Assembly (NCBI GenBank): GCA_037131105.1
Contig: JBAXRQ010000001.1
Span: forward strand, 66,039-130,038
Length of the DNA stretch: 64,000 bases
Direction: 5' to 3'
Source of the DNA: a bacterium
GTDB lineage: Bacteria; Patescibacteriota; UBA1384; CAILIB01
Part shown: positions 1,877 through 58,498 of the stretch, piece after piece
Layout of the letters: the number at the start of each line of letters is the position of its first letter
Position numbering within the stretch: position 1 is the stretch's first letter
Translations under genes and position numbers: made by a program
Notes under the pieces: generated by a model
Database searches by the model: none
What the model was told of the DNA's origin: nothing
The model's input: only the letters and a program-made list of their open reading frames with translations

Positions 1877-1965
1877 AGCGTCAGGCAGTTGCTTATTGCT
1901 GCCTCCGCAGTACCGAATGGTTAGTTCAGTTTGAGGACAGTAGCAATAAGCAACTGCCTGACGCT
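1877..1965. promoter_or_regulatory. 24-bp perfect inverted repeat with a 41-nt loop, overlapping the stop codon of the antiporter gene
   Basis: agcgtcaggcagttgcttattgct at 1877-1900 and its exact reverse complement at 1942-1965. Confidence 0.6.
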
Positions 1966-7872: not shown

Positions 7873-9300
7873 CTAGGATGTGGGAACTGCGACTGGGTTC
7901 AGTAGGGTGTCTATCTGGTCGGCGGCAGTCTTGATGGCGTCAGCCGGGGAAATGCCGTTCTGGCTGACATTAACGATGGTTTGGTGGAAGGTTTGGTCAA
8001 ACTGGGTATGGCCTAGTTTGTAGGTGGTCTTGCCGGTGAGAATTTGCTTGCTCAGGAAGTCGCTGGAACTGTTCTGGTCCAAAGTAGCCGCAAATGGTGA
8101 CTTGAGCTTCAGTTCGCTGGCTAGGCCCTTGGCCATGGCTTGGTTGGTGTAAAGTTTCATAAAGGCAAAGGCGGCGGCTGGATTGTCGGCAGTCTTGGTG
8201 ACGGTCTCAAGAGAGAAACGGATCCAGTTTACTGGAGTCTGCGATACGCTTACCTGCGGCACAGGGCTAATTTGGGGACTGAAGTGAGGGTATTTTACTT
8301 TGAGTTTTTGTCCGAAGTCGGAGTACGCGACCACCATGGCAAGCTTTCCCTGGGCAAAGGCGTCGAGAGCGTCCGGCATGGAAGGGTTCCAGGAGTAGGT
8401 AGCCTTGCTAGGATCTGAGAACGAGGAGAAGAAGGAGAGGGCATTCTCACCTGGGCGTACCTGTCCTCCAGAAGGAGTGGTGGTGGGAACATGGAAAAGT
8501 GGGTTCTTGTGGTCGTCACTGACTATCTTGGCACCGTTCTGGCTGATCAGAAGTTCCAAAGTATCTTGGGCATTGGGAATGTTGTCGGCGGTACCGAGAG
8601 CGATGGCGGAGCGGGTGATGGTATTGCCGTTACGAATGGTAATGTACTTGACGTCATTGACTACATCGTCCCAGGTGGCCGGGGGATTATTCAATAGTAA
8701 GCGAACTGGTTGGTATAAGGCGTCGCTGAAATTGGTTCCGAGTGACTTGCGATAATCTTGTAGGGCTTGACTGAAGACGTCTTGGTTTACATAGAGCCTG
8801 AGAGTATCGACATTGGTAGGTAGGCCGTAGACATGGGTGCCGTCGGCACTGATGATCTGGCTGGAGATGCCGACAGGGTACAGTTTCTTCACTTCGTCCA
8901 CCGGCTTGGGGCTGCCGGTCACCTGGCTGAAGAAGTCGTCGGGGAGAGGCTGGACCTGGTCCTGGTAGTCGCCTATCCAGTCGTTGGGGATGCTCCAGAT
9001 ATCCGGCCCCTGCCTTCCGGCGAGCGACTTCAGGGAGGCAAATTCGTAGTTATCGATAGTTCGGTTCTGGTAGCTGACCTTGGTAGCTGTGTGGTCCTTC
9101 TGGAACTGAGTAATGGTGTCACGGAAGGAGTCGACTGCCTGGCCTACCCGCCAGATACGGATCAGGTTGGTATGGGGGGTGCTAGTACCGGTAGTGCTGC
9201 AGCCGGTCGCCACAAGGCCGAAAATGCCGATGAGGCCGACAGTGGCTCCCTTGGAGAGCTTCAGCCTCAGTTTTTTTGATGGTGAGTGGTGCTGCCCCAT
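7873..9300 (-). CDS. lipoprotein, extracellular solute-binding protein (ABC family-1-like), orphan
   Basis: lipobox LVATGC; PDIWSIPNDWIGDY and LYVNQDVF resemble sugar-binding proteins; no permease or ATPase adjacent. Confidence 0.55.
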   Translation of the reverse strand: MGQHHSPSKKLRLKLSKGATVGLIGIFGLVATGCSTTGTSTPHTNLIRIWRVGQAVDSFRDTITQFQKDHTATKVSYQNRTIDNYEFASLKSLAGRQGPDIWSIPNDWIGDYQDQVQPLPDDFFSQVTGSPKPVDEVKKLYPVGISSQIISADGTHVYGLPTNVDTLRLYVNQDVFSQALQDYRKSLGTNFSDALYQPVRLLLNNPPATWDDVVNDVKYITIRNGNTITRSAIALGTADNIPNAQDTLELLISQNGAKIVSDDHKNPLFHVPTTTPSGGQVRPGENALSFFSSFSDPSKATYSWNPSMPDALDAFAQGKLAMVVAYSDFGQKLKVKYPHFSPQISPVPQVSVSQTPVNWIRFSLETVTKTADNPAAAFAFMKLYTNQAMAKGLASELKLKSPFAATLDQNSSSDFLSKQILTGKTTYKLGHTQFDQTFHQTIVNVSQNGISPADAIKTAADQIDTLLNPVAVPTS

Positions 9301-9312
9301 AGCACGAGATGA

Positions 9313-10194
9313 TTATGAGATGGTTTCCTGAAGGTACTTTCTAAAGTCGGCACCGAGGTCCTCGCGCTCGAGGGCGAACTCAACAGTGGCCTTCAGGTAC
9401 TCAAGCTTATTGCCGCAGTCGAAGAACTTGACTCCCTTGAGCTCCTTGGCGAAAGTAGGGCGCTCCTGAAGAAGGGCGTTGAGGGCGTCAACCAGCCAGA
9501 TCTCGCCGCCTTTGCCGGCAGTCTGCTGTTCGAGCTTGGTAAAGATGTCCGGGGTAAGTACGCAAGAGCTGATGAAGGCATAGGGGGAGATCTTGTTGTC
9601 TACGCCTGGCTTTTCTACGACCTCGGAGAGTTCATACACTCCGTTTCCCTTGTCTTCCTTCACCTTGACATAGCCGTACTTGTCGTAGTCGCTGTCGGCG
9701 GTTCGTTCCATTACCGAGAGAACTGGTCCCTGGTATTGCTCGTAGGTGGCGATCAGCTGCTCGATCTTAGAGGGGGTTCCCTTGTAGACCTCATCCCCCC
9801 AGACCATGACGAAGGGCTCGTCGCCTACCACTTCCTTAGCCTGGAGAATGGCATGGCCGTTGCCCAGCTGCTCCTTCTGGCGGACGTAGACGAACTTGGC
9901 GATATCAGAGATGTCGCGGATCATCTTCTTCTGGGCCAGCTTACCTGATTTCTCAAGCAGGTATTCGAGCTCCAGATTGTAATCGAAGTAGTCCTCGATG
10001 GCCCGCTTACTGTAGCCGGTGATAAGAATGACCTCGGTGATGCCAGCCGCTACCGCCTCTTCGACGATATACTGGATGACCGGACGGTCAACGATGGGCA
10101 GCATCTCCTTGGGTATGGACTTGGTGAAGGGGAGAAAGCGGGTGCCGTAGCCGGCTACCGGGATGACGATCTTGCGAATTTTGGACATTTCCAA
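9313..10194 (-). CDS. galU: UTP--glucose-1-phosphate uridylyltransferase
   Basis: KIVIPVAGYGTRFLPFTKSIPKEMLPIVDRPVIQYIVEE. Confidence 0.9.
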   Translation of the reverse strand: MEMSKIRKIVIPVAGYGTRFLPFTKSIPKEMLPIVDRPVIQYIVEEAVAAGITEVILITGYSKRAIEDYFDYNLELEYLLEKSGKLAQKKMIRDISDIAKFVYVRQKEQLGNGHAILQAKEVVGDEPFVMVWGDEVYKGTPSKIEQLIATYEQYQGPVLSVMERTADSDYDKYGYVKVKEDKGNGVYELSEVVEKPGVDNKISPYAFISSCVLTPDIFTKLEQQTAGKGGEIWLVDALNALLQERPTFAKELKGVKFFDCGNKLEYLKATVEFALEREDLGADFRKYLQETIS

Positions 10195-13002: not shown

Positions 13003-13217
13003 GATGCTCCTTTGCATGGTCGATACGGGGGTATCAGCCTACTGTCTCAAGAGTACTATTTTGGGGGAGAAAGTACAGGTACTTTGCCCGGCAGGAATGT
13101 GCCCTTCGGGCACCGCTTCCCGGTCTGCAGCGGCCGCTTAGGCGGCCTTGCTTACGCCGGGAGCACGAACGAACCTGCATCTATCGTAAGAAGGTCGCAG
13201 GTTCTTTCAGTTGAACG

Positions 13218-13263
13218 CACCAAAGAAAAAGAACCAACCGAAGTTGGTTCTTTTTCTTTGGTG
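13218..13263. terminator. terminator hairpin after tRNA-Arg; stem extends into the tRNA 3' end
   Basis: caccaaagaaaaagaaccaac-cgaa-gttggttctttttctttggtg; the same 38-nt trailer follows tRNA-Met at 56175. Confidence 0.75.
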
Positions 13264-13334
13264 CGCCCGGCAGGAATCGAACCTGCGACCTTCTGGACCG
13301 CAACCAGACGCTCTATCCCCTGAGCTACGAGCGC
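13259..13334 (-). tRNA. tRNA-Arg; anticodon reads GCG, CCA encoded
   Basis: manual cloverleaf GCGCTCG/CGGGCGC acceptor, TTCGATT T-loop, anticodon loop TTGCGGT; close to E. coli tRNA-Arg(ACG) overall. Confidence 0.8.
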
Positions 13335-13437
13335 AAACACTTTGCGGTTAATCTCACTTACCTCCTTCTCTAAGCGGAAGGTCTTCGCTGGTGTGGGACA
13401 CACACAGTGGAAACCATTCAGACCCTAGGACTCGCCT

Positions 13438-13470
13438 CCCGGCGGTCCGTCGCCTGAGCTACGAGCGCGA
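13438..13470 (-). repeat. degenerate copy of the tRNA-Arg 5' end (17 nt identical, then diverges)
   Basis: cctgagctacgagcgc shared with the tRNA-Arg 5' acceptor and D-arm. Confidence 0.5.
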
Positions 13471-29912: not shown

Positions 29913-30102
29913 GCTCTTGGGAGGTATGGGGAATTATTACAGATACATTCGTAGTTGATTGAGGCCGGGAATCTCACAAACTCCCTCCGGTCGTTTCAAA
30001 GGGCCCCTCGGCCCTTTGCGCTCGCTTCGCTCGCTGAACCCGCCGCGGGAGAACTCCCGTTCTCCCGACCCCTCTCCCGTTCGAATCCCGACTCTCGACC
30101 AA

Positions 30103-30138: not shown

Positions 30139-30229
30139 CTGGCGGAGAGGCCGGGATTCGAACCCGGGAAACCCTTTTGGAGTTTAACTCGTTAGCAGTG
30201 AGCCGCTTTCGACCACTCAGCCACCTCTC
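30139..30229 (-). tRNA. tRNA-Ser (anticodon GCT), type II, CCA encoded
   Basis: manual cloverleaf; 3-bp D-stem, long variable arm, anticodon loop CTGCTAA; close to E. coli tRNA-Ser(GCU). Confidence 0.85.
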
Positions 30230-30287
30230 CACGTCCTCCAAGGTATCATAAACCAGATACCAGGACAAGCTGAGATAATCTGGGAAC

Positions 30288-30858: not shown

Positions 30859-32037
30859 CTAGCCGAGCAAGAAGAAGTCGTCCTGGGTATGTGTGGTGAC
30901 GACTGGGCCTTTTTCGGGATCCATATAGACGTTGAGCTCTAGTCTGACCCCAAAGTCCTTGGTGTAGATGCCGGGCTCTACGGTGAGGCCGATGCCGGGG
31001 ATGATAACGCGGGTGTCATGGGCGGAAATGTCGTTGAGGCCGACGCCAGGGGCATGCACGGAGTCGCCGGGGCCGATGGGATGGCCTGTGCTGTGGATGA
31101 ACTGGTCGCCGTAGCCTTGGCTTGTGATGTAGTCGCGGGCGATCCTGTCCAGCTCCCAGCCCTGGAGGGTCTCTTTCTTGGTCCAGGTTTCAGTGAGTCG
31201 TTCGACTACCAGTTTCTGGGCGGTACGGACGGCGTCAAAGACCTTTCTGGCTTCAGGAGGGACGGTGGTTCCGGCGAAGCCCATTACGGTAATGTCTGCG
31301 AAGGTGCCGTCAGCACCTTCGGGCTTGGCCCAGAGGTCGATGAGGACGATGTCGCCTTTTTGGACGGGGCTGTGGTGCTCTTTGGTGGGTTCGTAGTGGG
31401 GGAATCTGCCGTTTTTGCCGGCTGCGACGATGGCAGGCCCGTCCTGGATTAGCTTGTGACGGTCCATCTCGGCAATGATCAGCTGCTGGACGGTGTATTC
31501 GTCGATGGGCTTATCCCCGCGCAAGGAAGTGCTGATGAGGTCGAAGGCCTTGGCGTTGATTTCTTCGAGGGCGCGGGCGGCTTGGTGATGGGAGGCAAGA
31601 TTGGCGGGGGTCCAGGTGGGGGCGGTGGCTTGCAGAAGATCGGCAGAAGTGACGATCTCCGGGCCGAAGCTGCGGACCAACTCAAGGGTGCCAGCGTCTA
31701 CGAATGAAACGCTGGGTAGGTCGCTGTTTGGAGAGTATTCCATGGCCACCTTCTTGTGCGGAGTAAGGTTTTTCTCAAGCCAAGCGCGAATGTCTTGGTG
31801 GCTGACGAAGCTGTCAACGACGATGTCAGAGTCCTTGTGGTTAAGGATCTCAAGGGTGTGGACCAGCAGGCGGGGCTGGCCGTTAGCAGGGATGATGAGG
31901 AAGGTTCGCCCAGTGTCGTGGCTCTGCTGGGTAATGAACTTGGAGAGGGTGGGATTGCTGCCGCAGTAGTCATGAATAAGCCAGGCGTCGAGGCCGAGGG
32001 AGGAGAGGGCGGTTTGGGCGGCGGGGATGGAGATCAT
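30859..32037 (-). CDS. M24-family metallopeptidase (Xaa-Pro aminopeptidase/prolidase-like)
   Basis: HSTGHPIGPGDSVHAPG and GLTVEPGIY pita-bread motifs. Confidence 0.85.
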   Translation of the reverse strand: MISIPAAQTALSSLGLDAWLIHDYCGSNPTLSKFITQQSHDTGRTFLIIPANGQPRLLVHTLEILNHKDSDIVVDSFVSHQDIRAWLEKNLTPHKKVAMEYSPNSDLPSVSFVDAGTLELVRSFGPEIVTSADLLQATAPTWTPANLASHHQAARALEEINAKAFDLISTSLRGDKPIDEYTVQQLIIAEMDRHKLIQDGPAIVAAGKNGRFPHYEPTKEHHSPVQKGDIVLIDLWAKPEGADGTFADITVMGFAGTTVPPEARKVFDAVRTAQKLVVERLTETWTKKETLQGWELDRIARDYITSQGYGDQFIHSTGHPIGPGDSVHAPGVGLNDISAHDTRVIIPGIGLTVEPGIYTKDFGVRLELNVYMDPEKGPVVTTHTQDDFFLLG

Positions 32038-32105
32038 AAGGATATGGTAGCAGGAGTTTAACGTAAAGGAATTCGCCCTTCGGACTTGCTGCTAGAGCAA
32101 AGGTT

Positions 32106-32165
32106 GTCCTCGCTGCGCGCTAACAGCGCGGAGGTTTCCGCTCGGACACTAGCCGGTCCTCCCGG
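32106..32165 (-). repeat. conserved roughly 60-nt element, copy A (also at 45814-45875)
   Basis: CCGGGAGGxCCGGCTAGxGTCCGAGCGGAAACCTCCGC-[hairpin]-GCAGCGAGGAC; internal hairpin differs between copies but keeps pairing. Confidence 0.6.
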
Positions 32166-32202
32166 ATCGGCGTCGCCTGGTTTCGATCCTTTACCCTCCG
32201 CC

Positions 32203-32239
32203 AAATGAAAAAGTACCACTTAGTGGTACTTTTTCATTT
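32203..32239. terminator. perfect hairpin after tRNA-Ser(TGA), core of a longer imperfect IR (32178-32264)
   Basis: aaatgaaaaagtaccac-ttag-gtggtactttttcattt. Confidence 0.75.
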
Positions 32240-32323
32240 GGCGGAGGGTAAAGGAATCGAACCTTCAACATTGCTGTTGGTCCGGTTTTCAAGACCGGTT
32301 ACGAGCCACTCGTACTACCCTCC
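32239..32323 (-). tRNA. tRNA-Ser (anticodon TGA), type II, CCA encoded
   Basis: manual cloverleaf; anticodon stem CCGGT/ACCGG, loop CTTGAAA, variable arm CAACA-GCAA-TGTTG. Confidence 0.85.
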
Positions 32324-32361
32324 ACGTGCCGTCCCAGTCCCAGCACTATACCAATTCCAGG

Positions 32362-45431: not shown

Positions 45432-45605
45432 CTAGACCTGGGCGGGTTTTTCAGATATGGTACGGGGGTAATCCCGTGATGCAGAACGTTCACTCGGGTC
45501 GTACTCGCAGCTATGCTGCTCGTGGGTCTGTCTACGCACTGCGTGCGTAGCCTCCCTCGCTCGGACCAAGCTGTCCAAGCAAGCTTGACAGCTTTCTCCT
45601 CACTC

Positions 45606-45680
45606 GGGTCTGTAGCTCAATGGTAGAGCAGTGGCCTTTTAAGCCATTGGTTGTGGGTTCGAGTCCCACCGGACCCACCA
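45606..45680 (+). tRNA. tRNA-Lys (anticodon TTT), CCA encoded
   Basis: manual cloverleaf; anticodon loop CTTTTAA; T-loop TTCGAGT. Confidence 0.9.
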
Positions 45681-45775
45681 CAAGTATGCCCTCAGAAAAC
45701 TGATCGACTCAAGGGAGCCTGTCTACAGTATCCCTCCGGGATACGTCTCAAAAGTTTTCTGAGGGCATACTTGTG
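45679..45775. repeat. 23-bp perfect inverted repeat with a 51-nt spacer, starting at the tRNA-Lys 3' end
   Basis: cacaagtatgccctcagaaaact ... agttttctgagggcatacttgtg; spacer has its own small hairpin tatccc-tcc-gggata. Confidence 0.75.
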
Positions 45776-45813
45776 GTGTGAAAAGGGGACTCAAACCCGT
45801 GGGCGAAGCCGGC

Positions 45814-45875
45814 CCGGGAGGGCCGGCTAGCGTCCGAGCGGAAACCTCCGCACTTGTCGGTGCGGCAGCGAGGAC
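45814..45875 (+). repeat. conserved roughly 60-nt element, copy B, followed by a degenerate half-copy at 45887-45914
   Basis: same consensus as copy A; hairpin gcacttgtcggtgc. Confidence 0.6.
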
Positions 45876-45994
45876 GAGTCCTTTTCCGGGAGGGTTGGCT
45901 AGGACGTGAGCGGTATCCTCTGTGCGCGTCCCGCACCAGCGAAGGTCTTCCTCGTAGTGCTCCCGATTGAGTTTCAGGCAAAGTTGTTTGTTGT

Positions 45995-46024
45995 TTGCAT
46001 CCCCTTGCCGTTCTCCTCTATACT
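45995..46024 (+). promoter_or_regulatory. sigma70-like promoter TTGCAT-18-TATACT
   Basis: upstream of the 46056 start, which has an AAAGGGGGG SD. Confidence 0.45.
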
Positions 46025-46055
46025 GAACCTAGAACGTTTGAGCCTAAAGGGGGGA

Positions 46056-47765
46056 ATGCCACACGCAACTATTGAGCAACATGTGCAGAAGCTGGACGAG
46101 CGCGTTGAGCGTCTGGAACGTCGTGTAGACGCTTCCTGGCATCGTCGTCTCCTTGCCTCCATTCGTGCTCTGACCCCTGGTGAGGTTTTGCATATGACTG
46201 GTTGGCTGCTTGTGACCGTCTCTGCTCTTTCCCTCTTTGCCACCAACGACAGCGCCGACACCAGCGTGCTGGTTTCCTGCGTCGGTCTGCTGGCCGGATT
46301 GTGGCTAGTATTTAGGGACTCTTCCTGGCCTCGCATCAGCCAGTCTACTCGTCATCTACTCCAAGAGGAGCGCAGTGCTCGTCGCATTCATGCTACTAGC
46401 CAGCACCAGCCGTTCTTTTCCTTTGCCAAAGAGGACACATCCTGGCAGGCTATGACTGGTTACTACCTAGTTCTAGCTGCTTCGCTCTTATTTGCTCTAG
46501 TGTATGCATGGTTGGTTCTCACCTATCTTCCTGAAGGTGCTTGGCAGCTATGGGGGGCATTGCTGGTGCCTACCGTGGGTCTGGCCTATTCCCTAGCTGG
46601 CTCTCATCGCTCACTACTGTACTTCTCCTTGGTCGCTGTCTTCTTGCTGCTGAGCTTCACCCAGGCTCCGCTCTTTGCCCTGGGATATCTTACCCTTCTG
46701 GCCCTAGCCTTCGTCGCGTGGGTCTGGATGAGCCGTGATTGGCCCTCTCTGCTTCTGGTAGTGGCAGGAAGTTACGCAGTACTTGCTCGCTGGGCACTCT
46801 ATCCTGAAAGCTCCGCCACCATTTTGATGGTACTGCTGACTTCCCTCATCCTTTCGCTTGCCTTCGTACTTCCTTTTGCTCTGTTCCGCCGCGAGGCTGC
46901 GAATCGAGAGTTTGTCCGCCGGACCATATTTGGTAGCGTGGCGGCTTTCGTGCTGTTGCCCCTCCTACTACCTGGTAATCCTGTTTTCTCAGTAGCCTGG
47001 ATGGAGTCAGCCGGCCTGTATCTGCTAGTACTTATTGCTTTGGGCCTCATTAGCCTTATGCGCTACGGACGCTATTCCTTTGCCAAGTACTACGGCATAG
47101 CGGCTTTGGGACTACTCATGCTGGTGGCGCTGCTGGCGGGCAATACCGGGCTTACTAGTATCCTCTGGTTTGCCGTAAGTATCATTGCCCTGGGACTGGG
47201 CTTCTCAGTAGGGAGCTACAGCGTACGTACCGTCGGGCTCTGCTTGCTCGGGCTTACGCTTCTCTATTATCTTTCCGCCATTTTCCCCTATCCTACTTTG
47301 GTTCCCGGTCCCTTCCTGCTCCAGCAGCGTATCTGGCTGGGGGCAATATTTGCGCTGTTCCTTCCGGTGCTTGGGTTCTGGTATCGCGACCTTCCGGCTG
47401 GTGAGCCTGAGACGGCCGAGCGAAGCTATATCATTGAGCTGCTCTATGTAGGGTCCTTCATGCTGCTGCTTGGCATCGGCTGGGTTGGCTTTCAGGCTCC
47501 GGCCCAGACTGTATTTTGGTTGGTAGTGGGAGGTGTGTACCTCCTGGCTGGGCGTATTCAGAAGCTGCAGGTGGTCCAGTCTTTGGCTATCGCTGGGATG
47601 CTTTCGGGACTGGGCAAATACTTCTTCTTTGACAGCCTTTCATTGCCAAGAGAGGATCGCATTGCCATGCTGGCTGGGTTCGCTGTGTTGGCGCTACTGG
47701 CGGGCGTGCATCTCATCAGACATGTTTCCAAACCTCATATTACCCGTAAGTCAGAAACCCTATGA
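46056..47765 (+). CDS. large polytopic membrane protein with N-terminal coiled coil (DUF2339-like)
   Basis: start at M51 of the ORF-track ORF (good SD and promoter); at least 14 TM. Confidence 0.5.
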   Translation: MPHATIEQHVQKLDERVERLERRVDASWHRRLLASIRALTPGEVLHMTGWLLVTVSALSLFATNDSADTSVLVSCVGLLAGLWLVFRDSSWPRISQSTRHLLQEERSARRIHATSQHQPFFSFAKEDTSWQAMTGYYLVLAASLLFALVYAWLVLTYLPEGAWQLWGALLVPTVGLAYSLAGSHRSLLYFSLVAVFLLLSFTQAPLFALGYLTLLALAFVAWVWMSRDWPSLLLVVAGSYAVLARWALYPESSATILMVLLTSLILSLAFVLPFALFRREAANREFVRRTIFGSVAAFVLLPLLLPGNPVFSVAWMESAGLYLLVLIALGLISLMRYGRYSFAKYYGIAALGLLMLVALLAGNTGLTSILWFAVSIIALGLGFSVGSYSVRTVGLCLLGLTLLYYLSAIFPYPTLVPGPFLLQQRIWLGAIFALFLPVLGFWYRDLPAGEPETAERSYIIELLYVGSFMLLLGIGWVGFQAPAQTVFWLVVGGVYLLAGRIQKLQVVQSLAIAGMLSGLGKYFFFDSLSLPREDRIAMLAGFAVLALLAGVHLIRHVSKPHITRKSETL

Positions 47766-56097: not shown

Positions 56098-56174
56098 AGC
56101 GGGGTGGAGCAGCCCGGAAGCTCGTCTGGCTCATAACCAGAAGGTCGTTGGTTCAAATCCAACCCCCGCTACCA
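56098..56174 (+). tRNA. tRNA-Met (CAT), initiator-like body, CCA encoded
   Basis: AGCGGGGTGGAGCAGCC...CTCATAA...GGTTCAAATCC, close to bacterial tRNA-fMet but with an A1-U72 pair and only two G-C pairs in the anticodon stem. Confidence 0.8.
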
Positions 56175-56213
56175 AAGAAAAAGAACCAACTTCGGTTGGT
56201 TCTTTTTCTTTGT
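56175..56213 (+). terminator. terminator hairpin, same 38-nt sequence as the tRNA-Arg trailer
   Basis: aagaaaaagaaccaac-ttcg-gttggttctttttcttt. Confidence 0.8.
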
Positions 56214-56410
56214 CAGGAAGCTGGATTTGAACCGTGAGTTGGGTCGGAAGAACAGTAGTTCTTCCGTGGAGGAAGGTAGCCGCGAAGCGGCGTCAAGGAA
56301 ACCGTGGGTTTCCTGAAACGAGCGAAGTGCCTGCCGGAGGCGGCCGAAGCACTGGCGCTTCTCGCGTAAGCAAGCGGAGCGCTGCAGACGAGAAAGCCGT
56401 GGAGCGTAGC

Positions 56411-56445
56411 GGAACCGTTTGTTCAATTCCCAACCCCCGCATTGC
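56411..56445 (+). repeat. degenerate direct copy of the tRNA-Met 3' end (T-arm + acceptor + CCA)
   Basis: cgtttgttcaattcccaacccccgcattgcca vs tRNA cgttggttcaaatccaacccccgctacca. Confidence 0.5.
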
Positions 56446-58196: not shown

Positions 58197-58368
58197 TAGG
58201 TTTCTACTACCAGTATACTACATGGTCGGATGGGGGAGAACGTAGCGAAGGTAGTACACTGGGCCGCTCCTGAAATGTTCAAATGAGGGGGAATGGATGG
58301 CCTTCGCTGGTGCGCGACGTGACAGATGAGTCACTCTGGCCATAGCCGATTCTCCCGGATCAGCGTCT

Positions 58369-58443
58369 AATTCCCGCCCCTGCCACCAAAAAGAGAACCA
58401 TCTAAAATAAATGGTTCTCTTTTTGGTGGCAGGGGCGGGAATT
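58369..58443. repeat. 33-bp perfect inverted repeat (9-nt loop) containing the tRNA 3' 20 nt
   Basis: aattcccgcccctgccaccaaaaagagaaccat-ctaaaataa-atggttctctttttggtggcaggggcgggaatt. Confidence 0.85.
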
Positions 58444-58498
58444 GAACCCGCGACCAAGAGCTTATGAGTCTCCTGCTCTACCCCTGAGCTACCCTGCC
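58424..58498 (-). tRNA. tRNA with CAT anticodon, body closest to tRNA-Ile2 (lysidine) type; elongator Met possible
   Basis: GGCAGGGTAGCTCAGGGGTAGAGCAGGAGACTCATAAGCTCTTGGTCGCGGGTTCAATTCC...; resembles E. coli tRNA-Ile2. Confidence 0.8.

Follow-up and report, generated by a model that had tools for sequence, protein, structure and literature searches.

A folded-RNA module recurs in tRNA-trailer elements of a Patescibacteria-like clade

The closest described relatives of the elements reported here are dicistronic tRNA-ncRNA genes, in which a ncRNA lies beside a tRNA or a tRNA-like fold, presumably uses the tRNA promoter and has its ends set by tRNA-processing enzymes. MALAT1-mascRNA and the tRNA 3' external transcribed spacer RNAs of E. 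coli are tRNA-linked cases, and bacterial tandem inversion duplications show the direct-inverted-direct pattern that is expected from snap-back synthesis. T-box riboswitches, RNAs near translation-related genes and beside a terminator, carry a UGGN that pairs with the NCCA of a tRNA. Plant tRNA-snoRNA genes are a dicistronic tRNA-ncRNA case cited in PMC12045711. Short GC-rich hairpin repeats after genes, with several copies, tandem pairs and compensatory stem changes, are known as REP/BIME/REPIN sequences, which are mobilised by RAYT, and in the attL/attR duplications at tRNAs an insert next to an intact tRNA has the tRNA 3' end, CCA included, repeated in direct orientation on both sides.

The tRNA-trailer elements described below share features with each of these systems and differ from them. 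Compared with dicistronic genes they are framed by inverted and direct copies of their own tRNA, carry exchangeable modules, can end in an acceptor strand with CCA and are present at most or all tRNA genes seen; their co-transcription with the tRNA is putative. A REP/REPIN sequence is a single palindrome of ~20–40 nt with a flanking tetranucleotide, dispersed around the genome, whereas the module is a 67-nt three-helix structure with conserved junction nucleotides that is found at tRNA flanks only, in tRNA orientation and with no copy away from tRNAs in 64 kb. Unlike in a tRNA-integrated island or prophage remnant, which comes with an integrase and large cargo, the inserts measure 150–230 nt and no integrase domains occur in the window; there is an extra inverted tRNA copy and the same cargo stands beside five tRNA identities, with cognate flanks each time. 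Like a T-box, the element offers a 5'-UGGN-3' complementary to tRNA NCCA beside a terminator, but it has no Stem I, specifier or T-box sequence, and its complementarity of up to 20 nt is to the tRNA in cis and lies after the terminator/antiterminator choice. There is also no RF00230-type match at E<=10, the downstream genes are neither aaRS nor amino-acid genes, and a T-box was rejected. Tandem inversion duplications and quasi-palindrome template switches share the direct-inverted-direct order with junctions at palindromes, as predicted by snap-back synthesis (PMC8794818), but they are a mechanism and not an element, and they account for the tRNA-derived frame and not for the conserved module sequence.

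The window, by which we mean the whole 64-kb stretch of DNA that was analysed, contains five copies of an element of 66–69 nt, the type 1 module. Copy A lies at 32105-32171(-) (82.7 bits with the covariance model R1, and seen in pair counts and RNAalifold), copy B at 45808-45876(+) (89.6 bits), copy C at 45880-45947(+) in tandem to B (pattern match; 76.7 bits), copy D at 58299-58364(-) (R1), after the tRNA-Met at 58424-58498(-), and copy E at 13380-13448(-), upstream of the tRNA-Arg at 13259-13334(-) (48.9 bits, E about 1e-7). The original prediction of a conserved element was right as to its existence but had counted only two copies. Its shared core of 38 nt, CCGGGAGGRCCGGCTAGYGTCCGAGCGGAAACCTCCGC, is exact at 32128-32165(-) and 45814-45851(+), where shuffles expect no match at all. 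Copies C, D and E were found with a loosened pattern and a regular expression; in copy C the first hairpin (Ha) has a weak 5' strand, which overlaps with the closing 3' strand of copy B. The covariance-model scan that had been suggested was run with R1 built from copies A–D, and it recovered two copies outside this training set, namely E in the window and L102 in another metagenome. Across the whole window R1 gave no matches beyond A–E and none away from tRNAs. The sixth copy, L102 (55.5 bits), is located on an unrelated metagenome contig after a tRNA-Pro and is preceded by a hairpin of the window's family and an inverted T-arm copy. Two strict patterns had no match in 185,579 species genomes or in the JGI metagenomes, and a looser one returned 25 JGI metagenome stretches, which is about the chance number, and one viral stretch, of which only L102 passed the covariance model. 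A blastn search of locus A against phage and plasmid collections gave no match.

No window copy is more than about 135 nt away from a tRNA. The six type 1 copies known, five of them from one genome, adjoin five tRNA identities (Ser, Lys with two copies, Met, Arg and Pro), have the orientation of the adjoining tRNA in every case and mostly sit between inverted and direct partial copies of it. With tRNA neighbourhoods making up ~5% of the window, our own arithmetic gives a p of about 1e-5 for four independent loci falling near tRNAs by chance. The adjacency and co-orientation known from dicistronic tRNA-ncRNA genes are thus found in 6/6 type 1 modules, and also in 9/9 elements of the sister type 3/4 described below, all of which are co-oriented with the tRNA and at most about 135 nt away from it.

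At locus A the tRNA-Ser(UGA) at 32239-32323(-) was identified by ARAGORN; the marginal Rfam call for this interval is tRNA-Sec, the anticodon however is UGA. The promoter scan detected a sigma-70-like promoter (TTGACG-17-TATAGT, 32373-32345(-)) just upstream of the tRNA. Behind the tRNA the sequence shows a terminator-like hairpin with A-tract, 8-bp stem and U-tract (32204-32238(-)), on which a perfect palindrome from the repeat search is centred (32187-32255, 34-nt arms, 100% complementary) that extends into the tRNA. This is followed by TGGCGGAGGGTAAAGGA (32187-32203(-)), in which the 3' end of tRNA-Ser, CCA included, is repeated in inverted form as an exact 17-mer (reverse complement of tRNA nt 69-85), and by the linker TCGAAACCAGGCGAC (32172-32186(-)), which combines an inverted T-loop remnant with a conserved AGGCGAC common to copies A, E and L102. 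Module A comes next, and the element is closed by a direct copy of the 3' part of the T-loop/T-stem of tRNA-Ser, ATTCCTTTAC (32063-32072(-)), an exact 10-mer of tRNA nt 67-76. The ATG of an M24 peptidase gene is found at 32037, 68 nt beyond the module, and the scan found no promoter between tRNA-Ser and this gene. As the nearest M24 peptidase orthologue is just 48% identical and not syntenic, no orthologous copy A could be compared.

The second locus starts with tRNA-Lys(UUU) at 45606-45680(+), called by both ARAGORN and Rfam, and a long hairpin seen in the sequence and the repeat search (45676-45778(+), 26-nt perfect arms, 51-nt loop), whose arms take in the CACCA of the tRNA together with a matching TGGTG and which is not followed by a U-tract. 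An inverted T-arm-like stretch, GAAAAGGGGACTCAAACCC (45779-45798), and the linker GTGGGCGAA lead on to copy B (together 45779-45807(+)). GGGACTC in this stretch is the reverse complement of tRNA nt 56-62, and the stretch is complementary to GAGTCCTTTTCC at 45876-45887. Downstream of copies B and C an in-frame ATG at 46056 opens the next gene. For loci A and B the described succession, in which the tRNA is followed by a hairpin, an inverted copy of the tRNA 3' part, the element and then a gene, is therefore correct. The '5' flank' of the element is itself derived from the tRNA, which the first reading of the sequence had missed.

The same arrangement surrounds the other tRNAs of the window. At the copy D locus the tRNA-Met is followed by its hairpin (58389-58423(-)), a perfect inverted copy of 20 nt of its 3' end (58369-58388(-)), the module and a decayed direct copy, ATTCCCCCTCA (58284-58294(-)). 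Before copy E, nucleotides 1-16 of tRNA-Arg are repeated (13453-13468), and the surroundings of this tRNA read, in order, direct 1-16, module E, inverted 48-32, tRNA, hairpin, inverted 76-41 and direct 49-70, the latter split by a different module, type 2 (13115-13164(-); motif CGTAAGCAAG...CTGCAGA). Type 3/4, a hairpin GGGUNGG..., GGAGGAG and a second hairpin, with compensatory changes in the hairpins, is present as a pair in two trailers. One belongs to tRNA-Ser(GCU) at 30140-30230(-), where the pair (29991-30071(-), 80.7 bits with the covariance model R2) stands in the same frame as type 1 between an inverted copy at 30079-30101 and a direct copy at 29961-29973 (both (-)). The other belongs to the tRNA-Met next to ftsH at 56098-56174(+), where the pair (56241-56325(+), 80.5 bits with R2) is followed by a type 2 module (56357-56397(+)) and by a direct tRNA copy (56421-56440(+)).

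After 6/6 window tRNAs the features come in one order, namely terminator-like hairpin, inverted 3' copy, structured modules and direct T-loop/T-stem/acceptor copy. The inverted copies have diverged to a varying degree and extend the hairpin palindrome at five of the six tRNAs, from 5 nt at tRNA-Lys up to 20 nt. A downstream inverted match of at least 12 nt was found for 5/6 window tRNAs versus one of about 39 tRNAs in loci outside the clade. The tRNA-trailer elements, which are specific to a Patescibacteria-like clade, carry interchangeable modules of at least three types, type 1 among them, and the element first noticed is a real module within a larger tRNA-flanking system common to the whole clade.

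The type 1 consensus runs from Ha, a stem of 8 bp closed by the tetraloop GGGA, through a CUAG linker to P1, whose 5 bp are prolonged by tandem G.A and by two G-C pairs, the joining strand GGWWWCCUCY, the hairpin Hc of variable sequence, CA, GC, GA and the 3' strand of P1. In copy A (32105-32171(-)) these parts are Ha GCCGAUCC-GGGA-GGACCGGC, CUAG, P1 UGUCC/GGACA with tandem G.A and GC/GC, the joining strand GGAAACCUCC and Hc. For the five window copies standard pairs fill 89.4% of the pair cells versus 74.1% in shuffles, with none of 500 shuffles as high, and two-sided changes affect 11/19 pairs versus 4.8 in shuffles and 0–3 with slid partners. RNAalifold found the same three helices independently from six copies, with 12/20 pairs compensatory. 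The unpaired GGGA, CUAG, GAG and CAGCGA are invariant although whole copies are only 56–87% identical. The central hairpins of copies A and B are indeed unlike in sequence and both still paired, as had been predicted, and the pair counts bear out the view that the element is a structured RNA or a recognised motif and not debris. The ~67-base element is genuine, a module of folded RNA. Pairing of GGA in the Ha loop with CCUC in the joining strand, as a pseudoknot, fits 16/18 cells by eye in alignment A8, but as the change is one-sided only we do not claim it.

This module matches no described RNA family, and the tRNA-trailer elements are not described before in the literature found: a literature search returned no description of such tRNA-flanking elements. 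A scan of the whole window with Rfam 15 (4227 models, gathering thresholds) yielded tRNAs only and left the module unmatched, and relaxed searches (E<=10 for loci A and B, E<=1 for the Arg and Met loci) gave only sub-threshold chance matches of hairpin type. Several other candidates were rejected as well. ARAGORN finds no tmRNA, and tmRNA_permuted reaches 11.2 bits against a threshold of 47. The group I introns reported from Patescibacteria tRNAs are located at position 35/36 in the anticodon loop (PMC13011429), and here the tRNAs are intact and there is no Intron_gpI match. TIGR-Tas systems, which have been found in CPR, form long arrays whose units of about 36 nt combine edge/loop repeats with two spacers, and a Tas gene with a Nop domain lies beside them (PMC12045711); the unit described here is 67 nt long, at most two stand in tandem and no Nop-domain protein is encoded nearby. 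A retron was dismissed as no RT was found among the 40 ORFs scanned, and protein coding as overlapping ORFs are only short and unconserved.

About 50 relatives have an FtsH 67–77% identical to that of the window, followed by Berkelbacteria and other Patescibacteria at about 60%, and by FtsH the closest species genome is a MAG named 'Patescibacteria group bacterium'. The relatives compared have FtsH proteins 71–77% identical to the window's and streamlined genomes of roughly 1 Mb. Here the direct copy can be complete, taking in the acceptor strand and CCA, with a second terminator behind it, as seen at tRNA-Lys in L086 and L089 and at tRNA-Met in L085 and L089. The intact unit thus consists of an inverted T arm, modules, the tRNA 3' part with CCA and a terminator. 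At tRNA-Lys of L086 and at tRNA-Lys and tRNA-Met of L089 the order is tRNA, first hairpin, inverted T arm, modules, GTCCCAGTGGGCCCACCA or ..CCCCCGCTACCA and second hairpin; GTCCCAGTGGGCCCACCA and the hairpin are duplicated at tRNA-Lys of L086, and the L089 Lys/Met and L085 Met loci are alike in this. No element in the window has retained CCA and a second terminator, and the direct copies there are decayed. The duplex between the two flanks is better than in shuffles for 7/9 type 3/4 elements (z -2.0 to -3.9). With type 1 (copies A, B, D and L102) it shows no gain over shuffled flanks (z about 0), and we therefore claim this closing helix, P0, solely for the sister elements.

Orthologous sites differ in the presence of an element and in the module carried. 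At tRNA-Lys L088 has an empty site, where the hairpin and TGTCT run directly into the promoter-like TGTCTCGC of the next gene, and L089 has an element of 215 nt between two TGTCT at the place where L088 is empty. The cargo at tRNA-Lys is type 1 in the window versus type 3/4 in L086 and L089. At the orthologue of tRNA-Met 58424-58498, which carries copy D in the window, the trailers of the six relatives examined contain neither a type 1 nor a type 3/4 module. The element after the tRNA-Met on the ftsH side (56098-56174) is kept in 6/7 genomes with compensatory changes, a case of long retention at one locus. The model R2 for type 3/4 recognised three elements outside its training set, in L087 (54 bits), L005 (46 bits) and L085 (37 bits), and had no match in 26 loci of other Patescibacteria and Chloroflexota.

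As our leading though still tentative reading we propose that the element is a folded RNA domain in tRNA sense, one module of clade-specific tRNA-trailer elements that are made by read-through, are set in a tRNA-mimicking frame and originated by template switching. Transcription would come from the tRNA promoter by read-through, as suggested by the promoter before tRNA-Ser, the lack of a detected one between tRNA and element, and the tRNA-Lys hairpin without U-tract; the hairpins at A, D and Arg resemble efficient intrinsic terminators, so that read-through may be low. The inverted and direct copies would pair and display the modules on a stem imitating T arm and acceptor end, and the 3' end of the RNA might be finished and protected in a tRNA-like manner, in intact versions at the CCA. 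The tRNA-derived frame could have been built by fold-back (snap-back) template switching, with the terminator hairpin and the T arm as the two adjacent quasi-palindromes involved and tRNA-hairpin-inverted-direct-hairpin as the product. We propose this because of the direct-inverted-direct order and the junctions at terminator loop and T-loop, and the tRNA-Arg pieces fit as well. The modules may then have spread from one tRNA locus to another without a dedicated transposase, using the near-universal T-loop for recombination or template switching. The T-loop differs little from tRNA to tRNA and is almost a palindrome, and the homology that it thereby provides on either side of a module could explain why one module type stands beside different tRNAs with cognate flanks. 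This mechanism of origin and spread is reconstructed from end states. Candidate activities of the module are protein binding, processing and the insulating of read-through transcripts; it is our guess that the module acts as a stable, protein-bound or processing-related RNA and not as a gene-specific regulator, the latter being improbable because the downstream genes are unrelated.

The elements might also be by-products without RNA function, that is, decaying debris of partial tRNA duplications by template switching, with the covariation resulting from hairpin perfecting. Template switching can produce compensatory-looking changes without selection and can both create and repair stems (PMC8794818). 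Alternating direct and inverted pieces of the own tRNA around tRNA-Arg, perfect 34–36-nt palindromes reaching into the tRNAs, decayed direct copies without second terminator in the window and elements missing at orthologous sites of relatives all speak for such a process. We nevertheless consider it unlikely, since the module sequence is not tRNA-derived, GGGA, CUAG, GAG and CAGCGA are fixed across copies with identities as low as 56–74%, the same module turns up in another metagenome beside a different tRNA, and the sister modules are conserved across streamlined ~1-Mb genomes with FtsH 71–77% identical.

Several copies per genome, the tandem pair B–C and the presence/absence polymorphism would also suit a repeat or mobile element at the DNA level (REP/REPIN-, MITE- or att-like), which would be recognised as folded single-stranded or duplex DNA by a recombinase or transposase encoded elsewhere and targeted to tRNA ends. 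Ha and CTAG, in what we take to be a superficial likeness, recall a REP palindrome with its flanking tetranucleotide, and the insert lies between direct repeats of the 3' end of the tRNA, as at tRNA-integrated islands; such repeats were found at tRNA-Lys of L086, at tRNA-Lys and tRNA-Met of L089 and at tRNA-Met of L085, and only in decayed form in the window. However, these repeats copy whichever tRNA adjoins and are not element-specific termini. A Pfam search found no transposase, integrase, RT or RAYT among 40 ORFs, covering ~71 kb of a ~0.95-Mb genome, the ORFs being ordinary housekeeping genes; the adjoining 7.3 kb of the source sequence contain no tRNA. Together with the constant tRNA orientation and the RNA signatures (GNRA tetraloop, tandem G.A, G.U pairs) this makes recognition as DNA quite unlikely.

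Even less probable is a cis-regulatory 5' leader for the downstream gene, be it a riboswitch, an attenuator or a T-box-like tRNA sensor. Copies A, B/C and D do lie 60–180 nt upstream of co-oriented genes, for the M24 gene no separate promoter was found, and the inverted copy begins with UGGN. But the genes concerned are unrelated (M24 peptidase, unknown membrane protein and a Metallophos_2 protein), for which reason a riboswitch was rejected, copy E precedes its tRNA, and L102 faces a convergent ORF. Moreover, there is no Rfam T-box or riboswitch match even at E<=10, the intact elements of relatives end in their own terminator, and in L088 the orthologous gene has no element.

The orientation on the coding strand, i.e. 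in tRNA sense, that had been predicted is favoured by the fold. Pairing gives it only a slight advantage (89.8% versus 85.6% in antisense) and folding z-scores of -0.01 to -3.2 on both strands do not discriminate, but the GNRA loop and the tandem G.A are present solely in tRNA sense, with a slight G.U excess (8 G.U cells). A small RNA from the opposite strand, which would converge on the tRNA, share a bidirectional terminator with it and end like a tRNA, with T arm, acceptor strand and CCA, is highly improbable, for although locus A in this direction ends in ..CCTGGTTTCGATCCTTTACCCTCCGCCA followed by the same hairpin and the fold z-scores are similar or slightly better, the GGGA tetraloop would turn into UCCC, tandem G.A into U.C/C.U and the eight G.U cells into A.C, the T stem is not kept at Lys or Arg, relatives have CCA and terminator at the tRNA-sense 3' end, and ARAGORN finds no tRNA or tmRNA.

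Coming back to the folded RNA domain in tRNA sense, a bolder version is conceivable, though we regard it as doubtful: the clade may carry an undescribed modular class of ncRNA on a mimic of the cognate tRNA with T-arm closure and CCA end, which would colonise tRNA genes by template switching guided by T-loop and terminator, with no transposase, and have a direct role at tRNA 3' ends. Such an RNA could serve there as decoy, primer or template, or else could bring about the destruction or processing of read-through transcripts, and its acting part might be either the 3' tail, free and identical to the tRNA, or the 5' segment that is antisense to it. If real and expressed, the module would represent an undescribed structured RNA family with sister modules, linked to tRNA genes both by position and by sequence, in a lineage whose genomes of ~1 Mb presumably retain little dispensable DNA. 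Framing by cognate tRNA copies, one inverted and one direct, which in intact cases end in CCA and a terminator, suggests a natural 'tRNA scaffold' for the expression of other RNAs, and the elements suggest a transposase-free route by which RNA genes could spread among tRNA loci. The loci are also unusually clear natural examples of template switching at palindromes building RNA stems.

The hairpins behind the tRNAs stand out in the repeat search as the window's "six longest-but-one" hairpins, and one of 36 nt is identical after tRNA-Arg (13223-13258) and after tRNA-Met (56175-56210).

The intact tRNA-Arg gene (13259-13334) lies within 13086-13470(-), where fragments of this tRNA in alternating orientation are found on both sides of it. 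On the minus strand the region starts with a direct copy of nt 1-16, followed by module E (a type 1 module, the three-helix element found beside tRNA genes) and inverted copies of nt 48-42 and 38-32. The tRNA itself is followed by a hairpin, inverted copies of nt 76-70 and 56-41, a direct copy of nt 49-57, an insert of 75 nt and a direct copy of nt 58-70. A structured insert splits the downstream T-arm copy between positions 57 and 58.

The same 36-nt hairpin, AAGAAAAAGAACCAACTTCGGTTGGTTCTTTTTCTT, was found at 13223-13258(-) after tRNA-Arg and at 56175-56210(+) after tRNA-Met, and the match ends on each side exactly where the tRNA-specific sequence begins. Its stem GTTGGTTC is identical to the 5' strand of the T-stem plus TTC of tRNA-Met. 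Near-identical versions follow tRNA-Pro in the metagenome contig L102 and form the second hairpin after tRNA-Met in L089, a locus from the same clade. A further motif, which we call type 2, is common to two sites in the window, 13115-13164(-) and 56357-56397(+). In it, a stem is followed by CGTAAGCAAG, a hairpin, CTGCAGA and a closing stem. The latter covaries between the two copies, with CTCCCGG/CCGGGAAG in one versus CTTCTCG/CGAGAAAG in the other.

The long tRNA-Lys hairpin carries a small hairpin, GTATCCCTCCGGGATAC, inside its 51-nt loop (45702-45752(+)), and a long hairpin of similar build, with GTGCTCCTCCGGAGCAC, is present in the trailer of tRNA-Met (8373-8447) in the related locus L085. 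Such long hairpins may represent a further module type. A perfect inverted repeat at the end of the Na+/H+ exchanger gene (1877-1965(+)), with no tRNA nearby, resembles the long tRNA-Lys hairpin in build; its arms are 24 nt and its loop is 41 nt long. In L086, also from a relative, the trailer of tRNA-Met (9961-10037(-)) has only CGGCTAGCAACGCGTCCCCA between two identical terminator hairpins. This sequence, which is similar to CGGCTAGCGTCC in type 1 copy B, may be the leftover of a deleted element.

The tRNA 5' leaders of this clade share the motif CCTCCCTCGCTC...AAGCAAGC and also include a partial duplicate of the 5' start of the respective tRNA, as observed at 45524-45592(+), in L102 (500-590) and upstream of tRNA-Lys in L088 and L089. 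In the window, CGCTCGGAC in the tRNA-Lys leader and GTCCGAGCG, which modules A and B both carry, are exact complements, so that a pairing of this leader with its trailer is possible.

Downstream of tRNA-Lys in the relatives L088, L089 and L086, TTGTCT follows the tRNA terminators and resembles a promoter -35 box for the gene that comes next; the window stretch considered with these loci is 45990-46056. The candidate promoter TTGTCT-18-TACACT, with an ATG 8 nt further on, would imply that promoters abut the tRNA terminators and that the mRNA of the next gene is very short or leaderless.

A selenocysteine tRNA at 32242-32324(-), suggested by a marginal Rfam score (50.8 bits, threshold 47), was ruled out, since ARAGORN assigns the anticodon UGA (Ser); the call is an artefact of Rfam clan competition.
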